This document shows positions 39,981 through 64,000 of a stretch of 64,000 bases of DNA, piece after piece. The stretch is taken from the NCBI GenBank assembly GCA_963823555.1, contig CAWGMA010000003.1:32001-96000 (forward strand), in the 5' to 3' direction. This DNA comes from Candidatus Eiseniibacteriota bacterium. Lineage in GTDB: Bacteria; Eisenbacteria; RBG-16-71-46; CAVPCR01. A program made the translations under genes and the position numbers. Numbering within the stretch: the first letter of the stretch is position 1; the number at the start of each line of letters is the position of its first letter. The notes beneath the pieces were generated by a model, which saw only the letters and a list, made by a program, of their open reading frames with translations, did not search any database and had not been told where the DNA came from.

Positions 39981-41453
39981 CTAGGGGGCCTCCTCCGTCT
40001 CGGGGGTGCGCGCTCCAGCTGAATCGACGCCGCCAGCGACCACCGCTCTCACCCCCATCTGGGGTCCAGAGGGACCGGGCGCGGAGGGCGCATGCTCGGT
40101 GCGCCGCACGAAGTAGTTCTTGCGCACCCCGGCGAGCCACTCCTCGGTGAGAACCACGGCGCGTTCCTCGAGCATGCGCATCCGGAGTCGCTCCTGGACC
40201 TCCTCGTAGCTGTACTCGCCGCCGCCTTCCCGCTTGAGCACCTTGAAGATGTGATATCCGGCGTCCGAGCTCACGCCCTCGCTGATCTGGCCGGCAGCGA
40301 GCCCGCGCACGGCCGCTGCGATCACGGGATTCAGCTCGGCCTCATCGAAATCGCCGAGGCTGCCGCCCTTCTCGGCGCTCTCGAGATCATCCGAGTGCTC
40401 GCGGGCGAGAGCGGCAAAGTCGGCGCCGTCCTTGGCCAGCTTGTGCACCTTCTCGGCTTCCGTGCGCGCGCGCTGGCGATCGGCTTCACTGAGCTCGATC
40501 GCCACCCTGATGTGGGCGAGATGAGCCCGTTCCCCCTCGCGCTCGATGAGCCGGATGATCTCGACGCCCTGCGGCACCTGGAAGGGCGGGGAGATGTCGC
40601 CCGGCGCGAGCTTCTGGACCTCGGCGGCAATCCGCGGGTCGATGTCGCCCGGCGCGAACCAGCCGAGGTCCCCCGCGTTCTGGCGGCTCGCGGCGTCATC
40701 CGACTCCTCGCGAGCGATGGTTGCGAAGTCCTCACCGGCCGTGAGACGGCCCTCGATGCGATCGAGCTTGGCCTGGGCGCGAGCGATGGCCTCCTCGTTG
40801 GCCTTGAGCGCGATGAAGATGTGGGCCAGCGTGAGCTTGCCCGGCTTCTTGGGCAGCTCGGAACGGTGCTCCTCGTAGTAGGCCTTGAGCTCCGTCTCGG
40901 GGATCTCGATCTTCGAGTAGACCTCGCGCTGCATGAGCCGCGAGGTCAGGATCTCCCGCCGCGCATCCTCGCGGTAGCGCGCGCGCAGGTCCTCCTCGGT
41001 GAGACCTTCCTTCTTGAGCTCCTGCTGGAAGACCTCATCGCCCCCCATCTGCTGCTTGACCGAGTCGAGATGCTGGCTGACGGCCTGCTCGACCTCGACG
41101 TCGGTGACCGTGATGCCCCGGGCGCGCGCTTCCTGCACCACGATCTTCTCGTCGATGAGGCTCTGCAAGATCTCCTCGCGGGCGCGGGCGATGCTGGTGT
41201 CGGGGAGGTTGGCGCGCATGCGGAGGAAGGCGAGCTGCTCCTCGACCTCGCTCGAGAGCACCACCTCGTCGCCGACCTGGGCGGCAACCCCCTCGACCAT
41301 GCTCGGCTCGCCGGCCCCGGAGCGCGGCGCCACGATCACGAGACCAGCGAGGATCGCCGTCAGGAATGCGCTGGACACAAGGGTGGCTCGACCCTGATGC
41401 GGCTTCGAATCCGCCGCGGATCGGGCCTCGATCGAATCGTCATGGATGGACAA
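39981..41453 (-). CDS. surA: SurA-like peptidyl-prolyl isomerase/chaperone (two parvulin domains); start uncertain
   Basis: VAAQVGDEVVLSSEV, two HI...F..A.E.SDD...GDLG motifs; TTG start after AAAGGA. In the ORF track it is artefactually fused to the mfd N-terminus. Confidence 0.82.
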   Translation of the reverse strand: MSIHDDSIEARSAADSKPHQGRATLVSSAFLTAILAGLVIVAPRSGAGEPSMVEGVAAQVGDEVVLSSEVEEQLAFLRMRANLPDTSIARAREEILQSLIDEKIVVQEARARGITVTDVEVEQAVSQHLDSVKQQMGGDEVFQQELKKEGLTEEDLRARYREDARREILTSRLMQREVYSKIEIPETELKAYYEEHRSELPKKPGKLTLAHIFIALKANEEAIARAQAKLDRIEGRLTAGEDFATIAREESDDAASRQNAGDLGWFAPGDIDPRIAAEVQKLAPGDISPPFQVPQGVEIIRLIEREGERAHLAHIRVAIELSEADRQRARTEAEKVHKLAKDGADFAALAREHSDDLESAEKGGSLGDFDEAELNPVIAAAVRGLAAGQISEGVSSDAGYHIFKVLKREGGGEYSYEEVQERLRMRMLEERAVVLTEEWLAGVRKNYFVRRTEHAPSAPGPSGPQMGVRAVVAGGVDSAGARTPETEEAP

Positions 41454-41554
41454 GGGAACCCGTCCTTTGCGGGAGGCAAGAGGCTGCCGATCGCAGTGAT
41501 CTGGCGCCGCGAATGGAGGCCGATCCGAGACTGTGACATTCCCCCAAGCCAAGG

Positions 41555-45218
<3,664 letters not shown>

Positions 45219-51270: not shown

Positions 51271-52223
51271 CGGGGATCCACCGGACGCCCGCCGCGCCGG
51301 ATCTCGAAGTGGACGTGCGGTGCCGTGCTCTCCCCGGTCGATCCGACCTTGGCGATCTCCTGACCGGCTCGAACCGAGTCGCCCATCCCGACCATGATCC
51401 GCGAGTTGTGACCGTAGAGACTCTGCAACCTGCCTCCGTGATCGATCACCACCATGTACCCGAACACGCTGTCGATCCCGACGCTCGCCACGACCCCAGG
51501 CGCCGCCGCCAGCACGGGAGTGCCATGAGGCGCGGCGATGTCGACGCCGTGATGCTCGCGTGCCGGAGTGGTGTTGACCTGGAAGCCCTTGGAGACAACC
51601 CCCTCAACCGGCCAGCGGAAGGCAGGCGCGCCCGATGCCTGTACTGCCGCTTCGGTCGGGCGGGCCCCCCCTGCCTGATGGCTCGGCTCGGCAGGGCGGG
51701 CGCCGGGCGGGAGTAACGGAATCGGAATGGCCGGCACGTTTCGGCGCGCCGTCTCATCGGAACCGCTTCCGGACTCGCGAGTCCCCTCCGCCGCAACGAC
51801 GCTACCAGCCGTCGCAGCCGACGATCGCTTGCTCGGCGGGGGCTTCGTCCCGGAGCCGCCTACAGCTTCATCGTTCCCGGAGCCGGCGCCTGCCAGGAAG
51901 AGAATCTGCTCGCGTAATCCATCCAGCTCTTCGAGCTCGCTGGCCAGCACTTCGACCTTCCGGTTCTCGATACGGAGCGCGGCGTTTTCCTCTTCGATCT
52001 CGTGCAGGCGCCTGAGCTCCGCGCCCATGCGCGCGGTGAGCACACCTCCGCCGACGACGAGCACCGCCAGCGCCGCCGCGCTGGCGAGCGCCGCATTGAA
52101 GAGCCAGTCGGGAACGCTCAGTACGATAGGCCGCCCGGCTCCGTCGCGGGTGACCGAGATCTGGACGCGCCGGCCAGTTGGCGGGCGGTCCTCGTGACCG
52201 GAGTGTTCGCCGGAGTCAGTCAT
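51252..52223 (-). CDS. M23 family metallopeptidase (TM + coiled coil + LytM)
   Basis: HHGVDIAAP (HxxxD), YGHNS, GSTGESTAPHVHFEIR (HxH). Confidence 0.92.
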   Translation of the reverse strand: MTDSGEHSGHEDRPPTGRRVQISVTRDGAGRPIVLSVPDWLFNAALASAAALAVLVVGGGVLTARMGAELRRLHEIEEENAALRIENRKVEVLASELEELDGLREQILFLAGAGSGNDEAVGGSGTKPPPSKRSSAATAGSVVAAEGTRESGSGSDETARRNVPAIPIPLLPPGARPAEPSHQAGGARPTEAAVQASGAPAFRWPVEGVVSKGFQVNTTPAREHHGVDIAAPHGTPVLAAAPGVVASVGIDSVFGYMVVIDHGGRLQSLYGHNSRIMVGMGDSVRAGQEIAKVGSTGESTAPHVHFEIRRGGRPVDPRRLVTR

Positions 52224-52240
52224 GACCAGAGCCAGCCAGA

Positions 52241-53434
52241 TCAGCCGTCGCGGAGCGCGCCGAGCTCCTCCAGGATCCGCTCGAGATCGTCCGCGTTGTA
52301 GAACTCGATTTCAATCCGGCCGCGCCCGTTGCGACGGTGGATGTGAACCTGCGTGGCGAAGCGCCGGCGCAGCCGCTCCTCGAAGGGGTACAGCTCCGCG
52401 TCCTGTTCCTTGGCGCGGGCCACGCCCCGCCGGCGCGGGGTCGACTGCACCAGGCGTTCGACGCTTCGCACCGGGAGCCCCTGCTTGACCGTGCGCTCGG
52501 CCAGGGCGATGCAGCGCTTGGAGTCCTCGACGCCAAGGAGCGCGCGGGCATGCCCCATCGAAAGGCGCTTCTCCTGGATCAGGGTCTGCACCTTCTCCGG
52601 AAGCTTGAGAAGTCTGATGAGATTGCTCACCGTCGAGCGATCGCGACCGAGAACATCGGCGAGCTCGACCTGCGAGAGCTGGAACTCCTCGAGAATGCGG
52701 ACATAGCTGCGCGCGGACTCGATGGGCGTGAGATCGACTCGTTGCTCGTTCTCAATGAGCGCGAGCTCGACGACCTCGCGGTCGGACGCATCGCGCACGA
52801 TCGCCGGGACCGACGTCAGACCCGCCCGCCGCGCTGCACGCAGGCGGCGCTCGCCGGCGATGAGCTCGTATCCGACGCCCTGGCGGCGGAGAAGCACCGG
52901 CTGCAACAGGCCCTTGGACCGGATCGAGGCGGCGAGCTCATCGGTCTCCGCGTCGTCGAAACGCTCTCGCGGCTGGAACGGGTTCGGCTTGATGCGATCG
53001 AGCGCGATGTCGATCACCACGCTGGCGCGCCCGGAGGCGAGAGCGCGCTTGGAATCCGGGGCGGGGCCGAAGGCGTACGATCCAGGCACGGGTGCCGTCT
53101 TGGCTGTGGGTGCCGGCGGCGGGGATGCCTGCGGGGCGTCGACGCCCGTGTTGGCAGCCGATCCATCGCCTGGCACCGCCGGAGTTCGCAGTGGTGCGGG
53201 TCCAGCTTCCATGGGGGGACGTTGTGCTTCGCCGGCGCGATCAGGCACCGGCCTTTCGGCCGGTTCACGCGCCGGCTCCGGCGCCGGCTGCACCGCGATG
53301 CCGGGTGCCGCGCCGGGAGTCGGGGACTTCTCGCGATGATCCTCCGCACCGGGCTGCTCACTCGGAGCTTCGAGAAGCTCGCGAGCGTTGGGGATGAGGG
53401 CTTCCAGTCCGCGTCCAAGCGCTTTCCTAACCAT
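52241..53434 (-). CDS. parB: Chromosome partitioning CTPase ParB/Spo0J with long Pro/Ala-rich N-terminal insert
   Basis: KALGRGLEALI, PNPFQPR..F, IAGERRLRAA, ALIENEQR.DL, HTH RSTVSNLIRLL, SMGHARAL. Confidence 0.96.
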   Translation of the reverse strand: MVRKALGRGLEALIPNARELLEAPSEQPGAEDHREKSPTPGAAPGIAVQPAPEPAREPAERPVPDRAGEAQRPPMEAGPAPLRTPAVPGDGSAANTGVDAPQASPPPAPTAKTAPVPGSYAFGPAPDSKRALASGRASVVIDIALDRIKPNPFQPRERFDDAETDELAASIRSKGLLQPVLLRRQGVGYELIAGERRLRAARRAGLTSVPAIVRDASDREVVELALIENEQRVDLTPIESARSYVRILEEFQLSQVELADVLGRDRSTVSNLIRLLKLPEKVQTLIQEKRLSMGHARALLGVEDSKRCIALAERTVKQGLPVRSVERLVQSTPRRRGVARAKEQDAELYPFEERLRRRFATQVHIHRRNGRGRIEIEFYNADDLERILEELGALRDG

Positions 53435-54218
53435 TGGCGATCACTTCCTGTGCAAGGTTGAGATAGCTCTCCGAGCCGGCACAACTGCGGTCGTAGAGCA
53501 CGGCCGGCTTACCGAAGCTGGGGGCTTCGCTAAGCCGCACATTCCGCGGGATGAGGGTCTTGTAGACCCTCTCGGCAAAGAACCGCCGGGCTTCCTCCAC
53601 GATCTGCTGCGAGAGGTTGAGACGACCGTCGTACATGGTGAGCACGACTCCCTCGATACGCAGATCGGGATTCAGATTCTGCTGCACGAGCCGGATCGCG
53701 TTGAGCAACTGGCTCAATCCCTCGAGCGCGTAGTACTCGCACTGCAACGGAATCATGACCGAGTCCGCCGCCGTCAGGCCGTTGACCGTTAGAAGCCCGA
53801 GAGAAGGTGGGCAATCGAGGAGAACGTAGTCGTACTCGCCGCGAACCGGGGCCAGCGCGCGGCGCAGGATGAACTCACGCTCCGGGACCGGCACGAGTTC
53901 AACCTCCGCTCCACCGAGACGCTGCCCGGACGCCACGGCATCAAGACCGTTGACCTCCGTGGCAATCCGTGCCTCGGCCAGGGGCTGCCCATCGATCAAG
54001 ACCTCGTAGATTCCGACGGGCTCGGTTTCGGGACTCACCCCCACGCCACTCGAGGCGTTGCCCTGGGGATCCAGATCGATGAGAAGGACCTTCTTCCCCG
54101 CCAGGGCCAGGGAAGCCCCAAGGTTGACGGCTGTGGTGGTCTTGCCAACGCCGCCCTTCTGGTTGGCGATGGCTACGACTCGACCCCGCTGAGAACCGCC
54201 AGCTGCATTGTAAACCAT
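53427..54218 (-). CDS. parA: Chromosome partitioning ATPase ParA/Soj (start uncertain)
   Basis: ANQKGGVGKTTT, DLDPQGNAS, DCPPSLG, QCEYYALEGL, IPRNVRLSEAPSFG. Confidence 0.96.
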   Translation of the reverse strand: MVYNAAGGSQRGRVVAIANQKGGVGKTTTAVNLGASLALAGKKVLLIDLDPQGNASSGVGVSPETEPVGIYEVLIDGQPLAEARIATEVNGLDAVASGQRLGGAEVELVPVPEREFILRRALAPVRGEYDYVLLDCPPSLGLLTVNGLTAADSVMIPLQCEYYALEGLSQLLNAIRLVQQNLNPDLRIEGVVLTMYDGRLNLSQQIVEEARRFFAERVYKTLIPRNVRLSEAPSFGKPAVLYDRSCAGSESYLNLAQEVIANG

Positions 54219-54450
54219 TGTCACATAACTACTTAAGTGTTTGTCGGGGCCGTCCTGATGGCCTGACGCGCGGGGCACGCTCCGATCCGTCCTTGTAGCT
54301 GATTCCTGGGGTGTGGGTCCAGGGTGTTCTGTATATCCTTTATGTAAAACATGTTAGGAGCCTAGAGCGAACACCCTCAAGCAGACCGTGCGGAGGAAGC
54401 AAGTACCAGCCTTTGGCCATAAAGACATCCTCTCGATGATCTTGGCGGGG

Positions 54451-56622
54451 TGTTCCACGTGGAACATCTTGCCCGATGGCCCCCGAAGGACCCGGGTGAC
54501 GGCCAGCGCGGAATCACCGGGATCACTCCCTGCGCCGGTTCGAGCTCGAGTGGCAAGAGCGGTGGACCAGGCGTCGGGGCGGAAGATTCTAGCCTGTGGT
54601 GTTCCACGTGGAACACCTCCGAAGAGGCGGTTGGGCAGCCTGGGACGCGGGGACCCGGTTACGAGATGTTTCCGCTGAAACATCGGGCACTCCTCCTTGA
54701 CCCCCGACTCCGATGTTCCACGTGGAACATCTTGCCCAATGGCCTCCAAAGGGCCTGGGTGACGGGCAGCGCAGAAGCACCGGTGATCGCTCCCTGCCGC
54801 CGGCTCGAGCTCTGGGTGGCAAGGGCGGTGGACCAGGTACCTGTGGTGTTCCACGTGGAACACCTCCGAGAGGCGGTTGGGAAGCCTGGGACGCGGGGCC
54901 CGGTTACGAGATGTTTCCGCTGAAACATCGGGCACTCCCCCTTGGCCCCGACTCCGATGTTCCACGTGGAACACCTCCAAGAGGGGGTGGGCAGGCTGGT
55001 ATGCGGGGTCCGGATACGAGATGTTTCCGCTGAAACATCGGGCACTCCCCCTTGGCCCCGACTCCGATGTTCCACGTGGAACATCTTGCCCAATGGCCTC
55101 CAAAGGGCCTGGGTGACGGGCAGCGCAGAAGCACCGGTGATCGCTCCCTGCCGCCGCCGGCTCGAGCTCTGGGTGGGAAGGGCGGTGGACCAGGCATCGG
55201 GCGGAAGGTTCTAGCCTGGGGTGTTCCACGTGGAACACCCCCGAGTGGGTCGGGCAGCCTGGGTGCTGGGTCCAGATCCGAGATGTTTCCGCTGGAACAT
55301 CGGGCACTCCCCCTTGACCCCCGACTCCGATGTTCCACGTGGAACATCTTGCCCATCGGCCTCCGAAGGACCCGGGTGACGGGCAGCGTGGATGCACCGG
55401 TGATCGCTCCCTGCCCCTCCGGCTCGAGCTCTGGGTGGGAAGGGCGACGACCAGGCATCGGGGCGGGAGGTTCTAGCCTGGGGTGTTCCACGTGGAACAC
55501 CTACGAAGAGAGGGTTGGGCAGCCTGGGTACGCGGGGCCCGGGTTCCGAGATGTTTCCGCTGAAACATCGGGCGCTCCCCCTTGCCCCCAAGTCCGATGT
55601 TCCACGTGGAACATCTTGCCCATCGGCCTTCGAAGGACCCGGGTGACGGGCAGCGTGGATGCACCGGTGATCGCTCCCTGCCTCCGGCTCGAGCTCTGGG
55701 CGGGGGGAGCGGTGGACCAGGCATTGCAGGCTGGGTGCGCGGGGTCCAGATCCGAGATGTTTTCGCTGGAACATCGGGCACTCCCCCTTTGACACCCGAC
55801 TCCGATGTTCCACGTGGAACATCTTGCCCAATGGCCTCCAAAGGACCTGGGTGACGGGCAGCGCAGAAGCACCGGTGATCGCTCCCTGCCGCCGCCGGCT
55901 CGAGCTCTGGGGGGGGAGCGGTGGACCAGGGATCGGGGCGGAAGGGTTCTAGCCTGGGGTGTTCCACGTGGAACACCCCCGAGTGGGTTGGGCAGCCTGG
56001 GTACGCGGGGACCCGGCTACGAGATGTTTCCGCTGAAACATCGGGCACTCCGTCTTGACACCCGACTCCGATGTTCCACGTGGAACATCTTGCCCAATGG
56101 CCTCCGAAGGACCCGGGTGACGGGCAGCGCAGAAGCACCGGTGATTGCTCCCTGCCGCCGGCTCGAGCTCGAGTGGCAAGGGCGGTGGACCAGGCATTGC
56201 AGGCTGGGTGTGCGAGGCCCAGGTCCGAGATGTCTCCGCTGGAACATCGGGCACTCTCCCTTGGCCCCGACTCCAATGTTCCACGTGGAACACCCCCGAG
56301 GGAGTTGGTCAGACGGGGCGCGCGGGTCCGGTTCCAGGATGTTTCCGCTGAAACATCATTAGGACCGTCAACCCTCCGCTTGAATCACTGATGTTCCACG
56401 TGGAACATCACCGTGTCCTTGATTGTGCGATCAGAACGCAGGTGGCGGTGCAGCACGGGAACGTGTCCTTGTGGAGACAGGGACTCGAGAGCATTGAGGT
56501 TGGCTCTCGATGATCAGCGACCAGGACCTGGCGTTGGCAGGTTGTGACTGCAGTGAGGGACGAACTCTGGACACCAGCCGCTCTTGAGAACCAGACCGAC
56601 CACCGGTGTTCCACGTGGAACG
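54451..56622. repeat. parS: Composite tandem array carrying 16 parS sites and 9 parS-variant palindromes
   Basis: TGTTCCACGTGGAACA starts at 54451, 54600, 54714, 54847, 54958, 55068, 55222, 55331, 55484, 55598, 55806, 55960, 56072, 56277 and 56392, with 15/16 at 56607; directly upstream of parAB. Confidence 0.95.
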
Positions 56623-56678: not shown

Positions 56679-57626
56679 CTAGCGACGCAATCCTGGCGGT
56701 ACTTCCTCCGGCAGCACCCACGGGCTCATGTAGGTCGTCATGCCGTCGCTCAGAACCAGAACCTTGTCTAGCCGATAGGTCCGCTCCTCCTCCACATCGA
56801 GATCCCAGCCCACAAGGTAGCGCTCCCCATCCAGGCGCTCTGGCCGCACGCGCCGCTCGATGCCTGGGGCCCCGGGACGGACCGCATACACGATGTCGAC
56901 GATGGCCCCGCTCCCCACCACGCGCGACACCAGGTCGAGAAGCATGCTGGATGGTCGCTCGGCGAAGAGATGCGCCGGGCCCGCCATGCGCCCCCGCACG
57001 ACATCGTTCACCGTGTGGATACCGCGCAACTCGAGGTAGGGGACCAGCGCATGGTAGGCGAGCGCGGTGACGCGGGCATCATCGGCGGCGCGGTGGGATC
57101 GCCCTCGCTCGATACCGTAACGTTCTGCGGTTTGCCGCAAAGAATTGCCCTCGCGATTTCGGTCCAGGAAGCGCGCCATCAATAGCGTGTCCAGTGCGAG
57201 ATTGCCGAGGGGTGGATGGCCGGCGGCAGCCATACCATCCTGCAAGAAGTGCAGGTCGAAGGGGGCGTTGTGCATGACGATCGGCTTGCTGCCGATCACG
57301 CGCCGCATCTCTGGGATCACGTCGTTCAGTCTGGGGGCCCCGACCAGATCCGCATCGGCAATCCCGGTGAGCTGCCTCGTCATCTCGGAGAGCCGACGGC
57401 CCGGATCGATCAGTGTGGAGAGAGCGACTTCGGTGTGATCGCCACACGCGGCAACAAGAGCCACTTCGCACACCGCATCGCCACGCTGCGCTGCAAGCCC
57501 CGTGGTCTCGAAATCGAGCGCTACGATCGGCAACCGATAGAGTCTCGCTTCCGGCGATAGGCCTGCTAATGGATCGGCTTCAGGCGCCGGATTTCCCGCA
57601 TCACTCGTGGCGGCCCCGTCGCTCAT
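56679..57626 (-). CDS. DEDDh (DnaQ-like) 3'-5' exonuclease fused to a C-terminal WYL domain
   Basis: ExoI LDFETTG, ExoII HNAPFD, ExoIII HRAADD; C-terminal I.Y...RRVRP..L...YLVGWD...RTYRLDKV. Confidence 0.85.
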   Translation of the reverse strand: MSDGAATSDAGNPAPEADPLAGLSPEARLYRLPIVALDFETTGLAAQRGDAVCEVALVAACGDHTEVALSTLIDPGRRLSEMTRQLTGIADADLVGAPRLNDVIPEMRRVIGSKPIVMHNAPFDLHFLQDGMAAAGHPPLGNLALDTLLMARFLDRNREGNSLRQTAERYGIERGRSHRAADDARVTALAYHALVPYLELRGIHTVNDVVRGRMAGPAHLFAERPSSMLLDLVSRVVGSGAIVDIVYAVRPGAPGIERRVRPERLDGERYLVGWDLDVEEERTYRLDKVLVLSDGMTTYMSPWVLPEEVPPGLRR

Positions 57627-58048
57627 CGGTCGTCGGCTCCGATGCGCTCGTGTAGCTCGTCGAGCGCTGCTCTGACTCCGGCGAACGGTATCAGATGGCG
57701 AGCTTCCGGGTACTCCACCCAGCGGTGCTCGTCATGCTCGGACGACAGCCTCACATCCTCGTCGCGCACCTCGACCCCGAAGCATGGTTCGAGGTGAATC
57801 GCCTCGATGGGGGCGTTGTAGAAGACATTCACTTTCTCGAGGAGAATGACCGTGATCGGGGTGAGACCCGTCTCCTCGCTCACTTCGCGCCGCGCAGCAG
57901 CCTCGGCCTTCTCGCCGGGCTCGATGCGCCCGGACACCGACTGCCAGAATCCGCCGCGCGAGGGAATGCGGTGCAGGAGGAGGAACTCGACCTGCCGGCC
58001 ACGACGCCGGAAGACGAAGACGCAGACACTCTCGCTCGTCACCTGCAC
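57623..58048 (-). CDS. NUDIX hydrolase (NudB-like)
   Basis: WQSVSGRIEPGE...AARREVSEETG Nudix box; LSSEH...W. Confidence 0.9.
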   Translation of the reverse strand: MQVTSESVCVFVFRRRGRQVEFLLLHRIPSRGGFWQSVSGRIEPGEKAEAAARREVSEETGLTPITVILLEKVNVFYNAPIEAIHLEPCFGVEVRDEDVRLSSEHDEHRWVEYPEARHLIPFAGVRAALDELHERIGADDR

Positions 58049-62399: not shown

Positions 62400-62870
62400 T
62401 GCTCACTCGGTTGAGGCTGAACAGCTTAACGGCTGCTCAGAGATCTCGCCTGCATCGCGCGGTGGTGCGCCGGCCGCGCATATCCCCCTTGTGTGCATAA
62501 TCCGGTGGATATTATTGATGCTCCGCGACCTCGTCAAGCGGAAAAAACCTCTTGATTGCGTCACCTACGCGGTGATAGATTGCCCTTCGCCCAAGGGAAA
62601 AGCCCGAGACCTGAGGCCGGTGGATTCCGCGAGCCATCCCTTCCACGGGCGGCTGATTCTCCCAAGCCCTGTGGATTGCTCGAAGTGATCGGGCTCCTGC
62701 CGGGGCCGCTGTAATCTGCACCCGCATCATCTGCATAGCTTCGCATCAAGCTGGTCACGCATGTGGCGGAGGGTGGTTTTTTGCCCCTTCGCCAAACGGC
62801 CCCGCTCGCCTTGGCGCTTCTTCATTCTTGCAGTAATGGCGGCCACAACCAACCAGCGCCCGAGGGTCAT
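62400..62870. promoter_or_regulatory. rpmH-dnaA divergent intergenic region with DnaA boxes (dnaA promoter, possible part of oriC)
   Basis: TGTGCATAA at 62492-62500 (TTATGCACA, fits TTWTNCACA); degenerate TGTGGATTG at 62670-62678; locally more AT-rich. Confidence 0.55.
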
Positions 62871-62874
62871 AGAG

Positions 62875-64000
62875 GTGACGATAGCCAACGGGAGTTTGGA
62901 GTCCCACGAGGACTCGGTGTGGGACCGGGTGCAGGAGCAGTTGCGGATTCTCGTTCCAGGTCGAAGCTTCGACACCTGGATTCGCCCGCTTCAGCTTCTC
63001 GCCTTCGATGGAAGCCAGCTCGTCATCGGAGTGCGCGACTCGTTCATCAAGGACTGGGTCGACGAGCACTACCGCAGCCTGATCGAAAGCAGCGTCGAGT
63101 CCGTGCTCGGACTCAAAGCCAAAATCTCCTTCTCGATTCAGCGTCAACCCGCTGAGGCCGCCGCCAAGAGCCCCGAGCCGGTCACTTTGGAGCCGCGCCT
63201 CCGGCATGCATGGGGGCTCAATCACCGTCATACCTTCGAGACCTTCGTCGTCGGCGCATGCAATCAGTTTGCCAATGCGGCGGCCCAAGCCGTCGCGGAG
63301 CGCCCCGGCAAGGTCTACAACCCGCTGTTCGTCTACGGCGGGGTCGGCCTAGGAAAAACTCACATCCTCCATGCAATTGGCACGCGAGTGTTGGCGCTCA
63401 ACTCCGATGCACACGTGTGCTACGCAACCGGTGAGAAGTTCATGACCGAGATGATCAACGCCATCCAGCGCGGGCGGACGATCGAATTCAAGCGCCGCTA
63501 CCGCTCGATGGACGTCCTGCTCATCGACGATGTCCAGTTCCTCGCCGGTAAGGACTCCACCCAGGAGGAGTTCTTCCATACCTTCAACGCCCTCCACGAG
63601 GCCCACCGGCAGATCGTGATCTCCTGCGACTGTCCACCCAAGGAAATCGACGGCCTCGAGGATCGCCTCATCTCGCGCTTCGGCTGGGGACTCGTCACCG
63701 ATATCCAGGCGCCCGATCTCGAAACCCGCATCGCCATCCTGCGCAAGCATGCGGAGTTCAAGGGGGTCTCGCTCCGGGACGACGTGGCTCTCCTCATCGC
63801 TCAGAACATCAGGAGCAACATCCGGGAGCTGGAGGGGTGCCTCACCCGTCTCTTCGCCTTGGCCCGGAACATGAACCGCAAGGTGGACGTTGCATTCGCG
63901 GAGCAAGTGCTCAGCGATCTCTTTCGCGGGCAGCGACGGGCTCTGAGCCCGCGCCGCATCATGGAAGCCACAGCCCAGGTTTTCGGCATCGAGCTGGAGC
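62875..64000 (+). CDS. dnaA: Chromosomal replication initiator DnaA (runs off window; start uncertain)
   Basis: Absent from the ORF track (no stop in window); hand translation gives SFDTWIRP, YTFETFVVG, YNPLFVYGGVGLGKTH, LLIDDVQFLAGKDSTQEEFFHTFN. Confidence 0.97.
   Translation, partial: MTIANGSLESHEDSVWDRVQEQLRILVPGRSFDTWIRPLQLLAFDGSQLVIGVRDSFIKDWVDEHYRSLIESSVESVLGLKAKISFSIQRQPAEAAAKSPEPVTLEPRLRHAWGLNHRHTFETFVVGACNQFANAAAQAVAERPGKVYNPLFVYGGVGLGKTHILHAIGTRVLALNSDAHVCYATGEKFMTEMINAIQRGRTIEFKRRYRSMDVLLIDDVQFLAGKDSTQEEFFHTFNALHEAHRQIVISCDCPPKEIDGLEDRLISRFGWGLVTDIQAPDLETRIAILRKHAEFKGVSLRDDVALLIAQNIRSNIRELEGCLTRLFALARNMNRKVDVAFAEQVLSDLFRGQRRALSPRRIMEATAQVFGIELE

Follow-up and report, generated by a model that had tools for sequence, protein, structure and literature searches.

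The chromosome of the Candidatus Eiseniibacteriota bacterium analysed here carries, close to its replication origin, a compact series of parS palindromes. Why the number of parS sites varies between bacteria, though one often suffices, and what drives their clustering are named as open questions in the accessible part of a review (PMC7333895). We examined a stretch of 64,000 nucleotides, called the window below, in which a first-pass annotation made from the letters alone had proposed a satellite-like centromere of 16 parS sites in a 2.2-kb higher-order repeat.

Scanning the window for the parS 16-mer with up to two mismatches returned 16 matches, 15 exact and one with a single mismatch, all between positions 54451 and 56622, against a mean of 0.01 in shuffled windows. 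The count of 15 perfect copies and one 15/16 copy is thereby confirmed. Cores 1 to 15 start at 54451, 54600, 54714, 54847, 54958, 55068, 55222, 55331, 55484, 55598, 55806, 55960, 56072, 56277 and 56392. Cutting at the cores reproduced the proposed order, A B A B B A B A B C A B C B, as 14 monomers followed by closing core 15 (54451..56407, unstranded), and the proposed lengths, namely 133-154 bp for A, 109-115 bp for B, and 208 and 205 bp for the two C monomers. Alignment of the monomers showed that their spacers are homologous, with identities of 83-96% among A and 59-97% among B, the low B values being due to edge monomer 14, which has a unique 3' part. Both C monomers share the same A/B deletion junction. 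The AB pair occurs five times with a length of 244-267 bp, in agreement with the unit of about 263 bp initially claimed. A second level of organization had been missed: an ABC unit occurs twice in succession at 55331..56276 (475 and 471 bp; TRF period 474; identity 0.87-0.90), the two blocks being about 88% identical. The repeated DNA stops inside monomer 14, at about 56360, and core 16, the 15/16 copy at 56607..56622 (unstranded), lies in unique DNA 215 bp beyond core 15. The repeat is therefore 1.96 kb long and 14 cores head monomers, so that the 16 sites of the original description stand and its 2.2-kb repeat length does not. Distinct monomers arranged head to tail, in multi-monomer blocks that are themselves repeated, give the array the structure by which a satellite-like higher-order repeat is defined. 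A CRISPR array is ruled out, since the array spacers are homologous to one another. No sigma-70 promoter was found within the array, terminator-like sites are at chance level, and Rfam gave a single weak match (E 0.27), far under threshold.

The array lies between a gene for a DEDDh exonuclease with a C-terminal WYL-like domain (56679..57626, minus strand) and the parAB genes, about 170 bp from the start of the longest parA open reading frame and about 6 kb from dnaA (62761..63999, plus strand, running off the window), which marks the replication-origin region. The genes rnpA, yidD, yidC, jag and rsmG stand between dnaA and the array, and the sign of the GC skew switches in this region of the contig. 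The parA gene (53427..54278, minus strand; start codon uncertain) encodes a Soj-type ATPase (Pfam AAA_31, E 2e-64) and is followed by parB (52241..53434, minus strand). The exonuclease gene, whose WYL domain is weak, forms a conserved flank: it directly adjoins the parS array in three relatives (G001, G003 and L215) as well. A NUDIX gene (57623-58048, minus strand), located between rsmG and the exonuclease gene, had no tblastn match at either the G001 or the G003 locus. Across the 4.6-Mb assembly (92.5% complete), every one of the 16 sites that come within one mismatch of the parS variants lies at this locus, and two isolated sites with two mismatches lie elsewhere. The genome-wide scan thus makes it the only parS cluster of the assembly.

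Profile searches of the same 92.5% complete assembly gave one ParB_N and one HTH_ParB match over cut-off, which indicates a single ParB. This protein carries the GERRxRA motif as GERRLRA. Its specificity residues R173, L179, K184 and G201, in Caulobacter numbering set by register with the conserved Q162, G170, N178 and R204, correspond to the RXXG parS type as given in the accessible part of PMC7383237. The core 16-mer differs only at base 16 from the ParB-bound Myxococcus xanthus consensus reported there for that species (PMC3899335, accessible part). A consensus palindrome, an origin-proximal position near parAB and a cognate ParB with the CTPase motif and R173/G201 are thus found together, and they bear out the identification of the 16-mer as a chromosomal parS.

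The cores are invariant and the spacers are not. When the columns of the second palindrome described below are excluded, variable columns number 0/32 in cores and 68/210 in spacers, in line with the initial claim of invariant cores under selection; the associated Fisher p of 2e-5 overstates the contrast because the units are defined by their cores and the columns share a history, so that they are not independent. Core variation in relatives, collected at up to two mismatches, is more telling. Among the 34 cores of G001, of the same genus, positions 1 and 16 vary freely and two changes fall in the inner 14; among the 22 cores of G003, of the same order, most of the variation is at positions 1 and 5. 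The asymmetry of these changes fits tolerance in protein binding better than self-repair of a palindrome. We consider this variation stronger evidence for constraint than the column count in this array.

The comparison of copy number across related genomes gave a sharp picture. Among 206 genomes of the phylum, 201 have 0-5 exact 14-mer sites, most often 2. The others are this genome (G000, 16 sites), G001 (32), G003 (20), G066 (10) and G021 (9), so that arrays of 16-34 sites were found in one order, against 0-5 sites in 201/206 genomes. G001, G003 and the metagenome locus L215 (ParA 87% identical; L210 is the same DNA) contain 17-34 parS in the interval between the exonuclease gene and parA. 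Their architectures differ: in G001, monomers of four types, 44-84 bp long, follow one another in a shuffled order; in G003, A and B alternate almost regularly; and in L215, a block of four spacers is duplicated once within the array of 17 parS. The parS repeat of G066 is a tandem of 7 units of 77 bp. Similarity of spacers across the G000, G001, G003 and L215 arrays is no higher than in shuffles, and apart from the second palindrome no homology of the array spacers was found to other species or other places of the genome. Locus and cores persist and the spacers are unrelated; the spacers have therefore been wholly replaced, even between species whose ParA proteins are 93% identical. The other two genomes of the order, G002 and G004, show no parS and are uninformative because the parA orthologue is also missing from these fragmented assemblies (450 and 560 contigs). 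Orthologous arrays with unrelated spacers, together with the few sites in 201/206 genomes, therefore support tandem growth with spacer turnover. The tandem amplification proposed in the first-pass annotation holds on two grounds, the homologous spacers within the array and the unrelated spacers of the orthologous ones. In the G003 array (L028 7888-9451), the spacers of most units hold an imperfect palindrome whose arms resemble those of parS and whose centre has an odd number of bases.

We thus read the array as the likely chromosomal centromere on which ParB would load, grown in tandem, with cores held by a binding constraint and spacers free to change. We give this reading a probability of about 0.8; it draws on the observed position, unit structure and core invariance of the array and on the unrelated spacers of the three orthologous arrays. 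Repeated tandem duplication would have produced the AB dimer, a deletion would then have created C, and the ABC block would have been duplicated last. The shared C junction and the ABC ABC block point to this order, one deletion followed by a larger duplication. Copying may have proceeded by unequal recombination or by slippage, with selection keeping the cores while spacers would drift and be replaced between species. By analogy with established ParABS biology (PMC7333895, accessible part), ParB-CTP clamps would load at the cores and spread, ParA would move the origin and SMC would be recruited. One feature counts against this reading: the two C units have lost a core, which suggests that the number of sites is not strictly held.

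That loss would be expected of a neutral minisatellite that merely happens to include parS, in which extra copies have no effect and core conservation reflects ascertainment or palindrome self-correction. The sites were indeed found by their own sequence and, since a single parS often suffices (PMC7333895, accessible part), the extra copies may be neutral. We nevertheless hold this alternative to be improbable, given that the cores of relatives vary asymmetrically, mostly at outer or degenerate positions, and that arrays with unrelated spacers have been rebuilt at the same locus in four genomes. Amplification could be neutral even with constrained cores.

The array is unlikely to be an artefact of assembly: no two monomers are the same, and exact repeats reach 101 bp at most. 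In contigs of run X1, which may be the source sample itself, pieces of parB showed no differences (the comparison covered window 52200-54713), and the 30 letters at 56196-56225, the junction of C monomer 13, were recovered between two sides of one contig; runs X2-X4, which have small shares, yielded nothing on the array. An artefact or a coding repeat (MFHVEH-type peptides), which the overlap of several open reading frames of 100-350 aa with the array might suggest, is very hard to reconcile with these distinct monomers, the X1 junction, the arrays at the same place in independent assemblies of relatives, monomer lengths that break the frame so that no open reading frame spans the array, and the negligible Rfam match.

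To see how common such arrays are, the GTDB genomes were scanned for three parS spaced 49-79 bp, a limit under which the array of the window would itself be missed. About 1300 stretches are estimated from 6/64 parts, and 120 loci were sampled, 40 of them with short flanks. In 18/120 loci at least three and at least half of the spacers are homologous, while shuffled controls never reached two; 6 of these 18 contain at least 8 sites. Bacilli, Hyphomicrobiales, Myxococcota and Paceibacterota are among the groups represented, and two-monomer arrays occur among the 18. In a comparison with 120 named loci, the closest ParA and ParB (64% and 48% identical) were those of a contig labelled Candidatus Eiseniibacteriota. 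Extrapolation gives at least about 200 tandem stretches among 185,579 species. Tandem chromosomal parS arrays are sporadic in many phyla, recurrent but uncommon. No description of tandem or satellite-like chromosomal parS arrays was found in the literature searched, which holds few subscription papers and does not prove absence from print. The 18/120 loci make the array less surprising than it first seemed. Two cases among the sampled loci deserve mention. In uncultured Bacilli (L081 2245-2750, also L042 and L051), 64-bp tandem units each contain one parS and one Noc-type site, and a single Hyphomicrobiales chromosome carries two near-perfect parS tandem arrays of 50-bp and 49-bp units (L114 2500-2915 and L149 300-660) about 1.76 Mb apart.

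The closest described chromosomal case is that of M. xanthus, with 22 parS in 3 kb located about 4 kb upstream of parA (PMC3899335, accessible part). It resembles the present locus in three respects: the 16-bp site is the same, the sites are gathered upstream of parAB in one dense group close to the origin, and their number is comparable. Sixteen sites in 2-3 kb fall inside the published range, and species with 20-23 parS sites are also known (PMC7333895, accessible part). In contrast to the two related monomer families and two-level repeat found here, no repeated spacers are described in the accessible part of the M. xanthus paper. In one Myxococcus sp. locus, 8/13 spacers proved weakly homologous, and that cluster may therefore be an older, decayed form. 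Tandem organization is well known from the F-plasmid centromere sopC, with 12 repeats of 43 bp each carrying a 16-bp SopB site and 3-17 repeats in relatives; the same source, in its accessible part, describes chromosomal parS as scattered or clustered rather than tandem (PMC3177203). Both systems consist of tandem units with one ParB-family palindrome each, a variable copy number and degenerate edge units. As described there, however, sopC is on a plasmid and has one monomer type, a fixed short period and a spacer conserved across species. A sopC-type plasmid centromere was rejected for the present array in view of its chromosomal origin context, its several monomer types and the unrelated spacers of its relatives.

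The array holds a second repeated palindrome, absent from the first-pass annotation. This GC-centred, parS-like word of 16 bp occurs nine times (54667..56355, unstranded; at 54667, 54912, 55022, 55284, 55552, 55758, 56025, 56231 and 56340), in 7/7 B and 2/2 C monomers and in no A monomer. Six copies are identical, one has one change and two have two changes. The word differs from parS at three central bases, and its arms match the T/A form of parS. It varies less than its surroundings (3/20 variable columns against 34/74 in the rest of B, p 0.019), and the diverged edge monomer 14 retains a perfect copy. Genome-wide there are 45 matches, against 0 in the control: 7 in the array and 38 outside it, almost all far from the origin. 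In L215, 4 exact words and one near word stand among the 17 parS, in unrelated DNA; the G001 and G003 arrays contain none, and the word was found within 300 bp of 0/150 other parS loci (GTDB and relatives). A metagenome scan for the pair of parS and word, run with no chance control, returned 19 stretches, 13 of which have a full parS within about 70 bp; they belong to about five unrelated groups, several lying beside parA, jag or other origin genes. In a set of related metagenome contigs (L207, L216, L218, L219, L224 and L225), a GC-centred look-alike about 50-60 bp from parS adjoins homologues of genes that this genome carries some 10 kb beyond dnaA.

Several candidate functions for the word were tried and rejected. 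No second ParB or Noc that might read it was found in the 92.5% complete assembly. A Noc-NBS system is excluded by the single ParB, which scores 221 on TIGR04285, below the cut-off of 315, and by the word itself, which is not an NBS according to the pattern that we take to define that site. The 44 open reading frames neighbouring dispersed words have unrelated Pfam families or none, which discards a regulon or a shared neighbour, except that five Pfam-less ones are copies of a nuclease gene. A terminus-organising site like matS was also considered; few words occur in the right arm close to the origin, but their spread is too wide to support this role. One locus on C2 (583902-584025, L170 3003-3125) has five tandem words with a period of 27 bp, away from any nuclease copy.

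The nuclease gene is present in five near-full copies, 85-99% identical, each of which (5/5) ends in one to four words. Three of the five give split hits and may therefore be broken. The protein itself has no Pfam match, and its homologues carry DUF222 (PF02720) and HNH (PF01844). In each of G001-G004 the best homologue contains the word at its 3' end or is closely followed by it; the G009 homologue has it inside and upstream of the gene rather than at the 3' end, and two further G001 homologues lack it by the pattern used. The translated word falls in the last 150 residues in 41/120 homologues against the first 150 in 1. These sequence associations show it, as far as they go, to be a terminal word of the DUF222-HNH family, and the gene is likely a mobile nuclease gene. 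A cognate palindrome for DUF222-HNH proteins was not found in the literature searched (titles and abstract openings). Close homologues exist in 7/206 phylum genomes, namely every one of the 5 genomes of the order, as well as G009 and G169, and this order is home to all three arrays with 16 or more sites among the 206 genomes. The variant of the word found in the array is the one that ends this genome's DUF222-HNH copies, and the homology of the B unit to the element end is limited to about 20 bp. One copy is directly adjoined by a gene with intein, LAGLIDADG and HATPase domains (L166 1-2856, minus strand). On contig C1 of G003, about 30 weak matches to the DUF222-HNH query, in open reading frames of 440-940 aa, suggest further multi-copy HNH families.

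A structural model of the protein (pLDDT 77) was compared with known folds. Residues 37-147 have as their top match the ParB DNA-binding domain 6s6h (Z 9.8, rmsd 2.4 A over 96 residues), and the next VIA matches are Spo0J (Z 8.7) and KorB (Z 8.1), so that the top three all belong to the ParB family; for helical domains, a Z under about 13 can be generic. Foldseek gave no match at E 0.001 or better, while listing ParB chains with probabilities up to 0.99. The model is thus suggestive of a front end with a ParB-like DNA-binding fold. The HNH part matches the TagI and IscB folds.

Three explanations of the word in the array have to be weighed. The most likely option, which we put a little below even odds, is that it is a passenger: it would have come to lie beside a single parS before the array was amplified, and would then have been duplicated along with the B unit. 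Against this, the word varies less than the rest of B, is perfect in monomer 14 and recurs among parS in the unrelated DNA of L215.

An alternative that we regard as unlikely, though deserving real weight, is a weak or decayed ParB site kept through slight ParB binding. The arms of the word would suit it, as would the permissive K at position 184 of this ParB (PMC7383237, accessible part), the binding of half-sites by some ParBs (PMC7022226, accessible part) and the look-alike within about 70 bp of a full parS in 13/19 metagenome matches from about five unrelated groups, a scan that has no chance control. The distribution of the word points the other way: 38/45 copies in the genome lie outside the array, tracking the nuclease gene and not parB, and the word accompanies 0/150 other parS loci.

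Somewhat less likely again is a two-word centromere, in which the DUF222-HNH protein would bind the word in alternate monomers through its ParB-like domain. It might then nick at the word, with repair by unequal recombination expanding and reshuffling the array, or it might act as a second centromere-binding protein in the manner of CENP-B. The model of residues 37-147 would fit such a role, as would the presence of the word in 9/9 B and C units with a conservation above that of its surroundings, the variant shared with element ends, its mixture with parS in L215 and its local multiplication elsewhere, such as the five copies at 27-bp spacing on C2. Element homologues also occur in all 5 genomes of the order that holds all arrays of at least 16 sites. 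Their overlap with the arrays is however that of one clade, and thus one event, and it has exceptions in both directions: G066 has a 77-bp parS tandem without a close element homologue, G009 and G169 have a homologue but only 2 and 1 parS, and the G001 and G003 arrays lack the word. The role of the nuclease as a driver is therefore unproven. The generic range of the Z score, the empty Foldseek result at that threshold, the split state of three of the five copies, and the homologues in which the word is missing (two in G001) or not 3'-terminal (G009) further weaken this explanation.

The ParB and Noc pair with their parS and NBS sites (PMC7383237, accessible part), together with the 64-bp Bacilli units described above, offers a parallel, as two related palindromes of ParB-fold type are interleaved in an origin-proximal repeat. 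In contrast, no Noc or second ParB exists here, and the candidate reader of the word would be the DUF222-HNH protein. A further parallel, by analogy only, is alpha-satellite DNA, whose dimers carry the CENP-B box in alternate monomers and whose CENP-B derives from a pogo-like transposase (PMC8122249, accessible part). Both show dimeric and higher-order units, fast spacer evolution and a word linked to a mobile element in alternate monomers. They differ in that the present array measures 2 kb against megabases, is a sequence-defined ParB centromere, has no homology to alpha-satellite and lacks the word in the arrays of two relatives. Pushed to its end, this analogy would make the centromere of the order a true satellite rebuilt in each species and colonised by a DUF222-HNH nuclease that writes and binds the word and, by nicking, drives amplification and turnover. 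We consider this full scenario doubtful; if true, bacteria would have their own equivalent of the alpha-satellite CENP-B box, and the variation in parS number would have a concrete cause.

Dense clusters, as in Myxococcus, and tandem plasmid centromeres, as in sopC, were already known. What the present locus adds is a series at the level of an order with complete spacer turnover, and a word of a mobile nuclease in alternate monomers. The arrays make one mechanism for parS number visible, tandem duplication with full spacer turnover. They also form a natural series, whose members range from about 2 sites across most of the phylum up to 16-34 in a single order, and model bacteria could serve to test synthetic arrays derived from them. 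Should the nuclease word prove active in the array, this bacterial centromere would be shaped by a selfish element, much as eukaryotic ones are by proteins of mobile elements.

Elsewhere in the window, a helicase-like gene at 39981-45218 and 41555-43555 (minus strand), which we take to be mfd from its motifs, is broken across two frames and continues into a SurA-like open reading frame, probably through a frameshift or a sequencing error.
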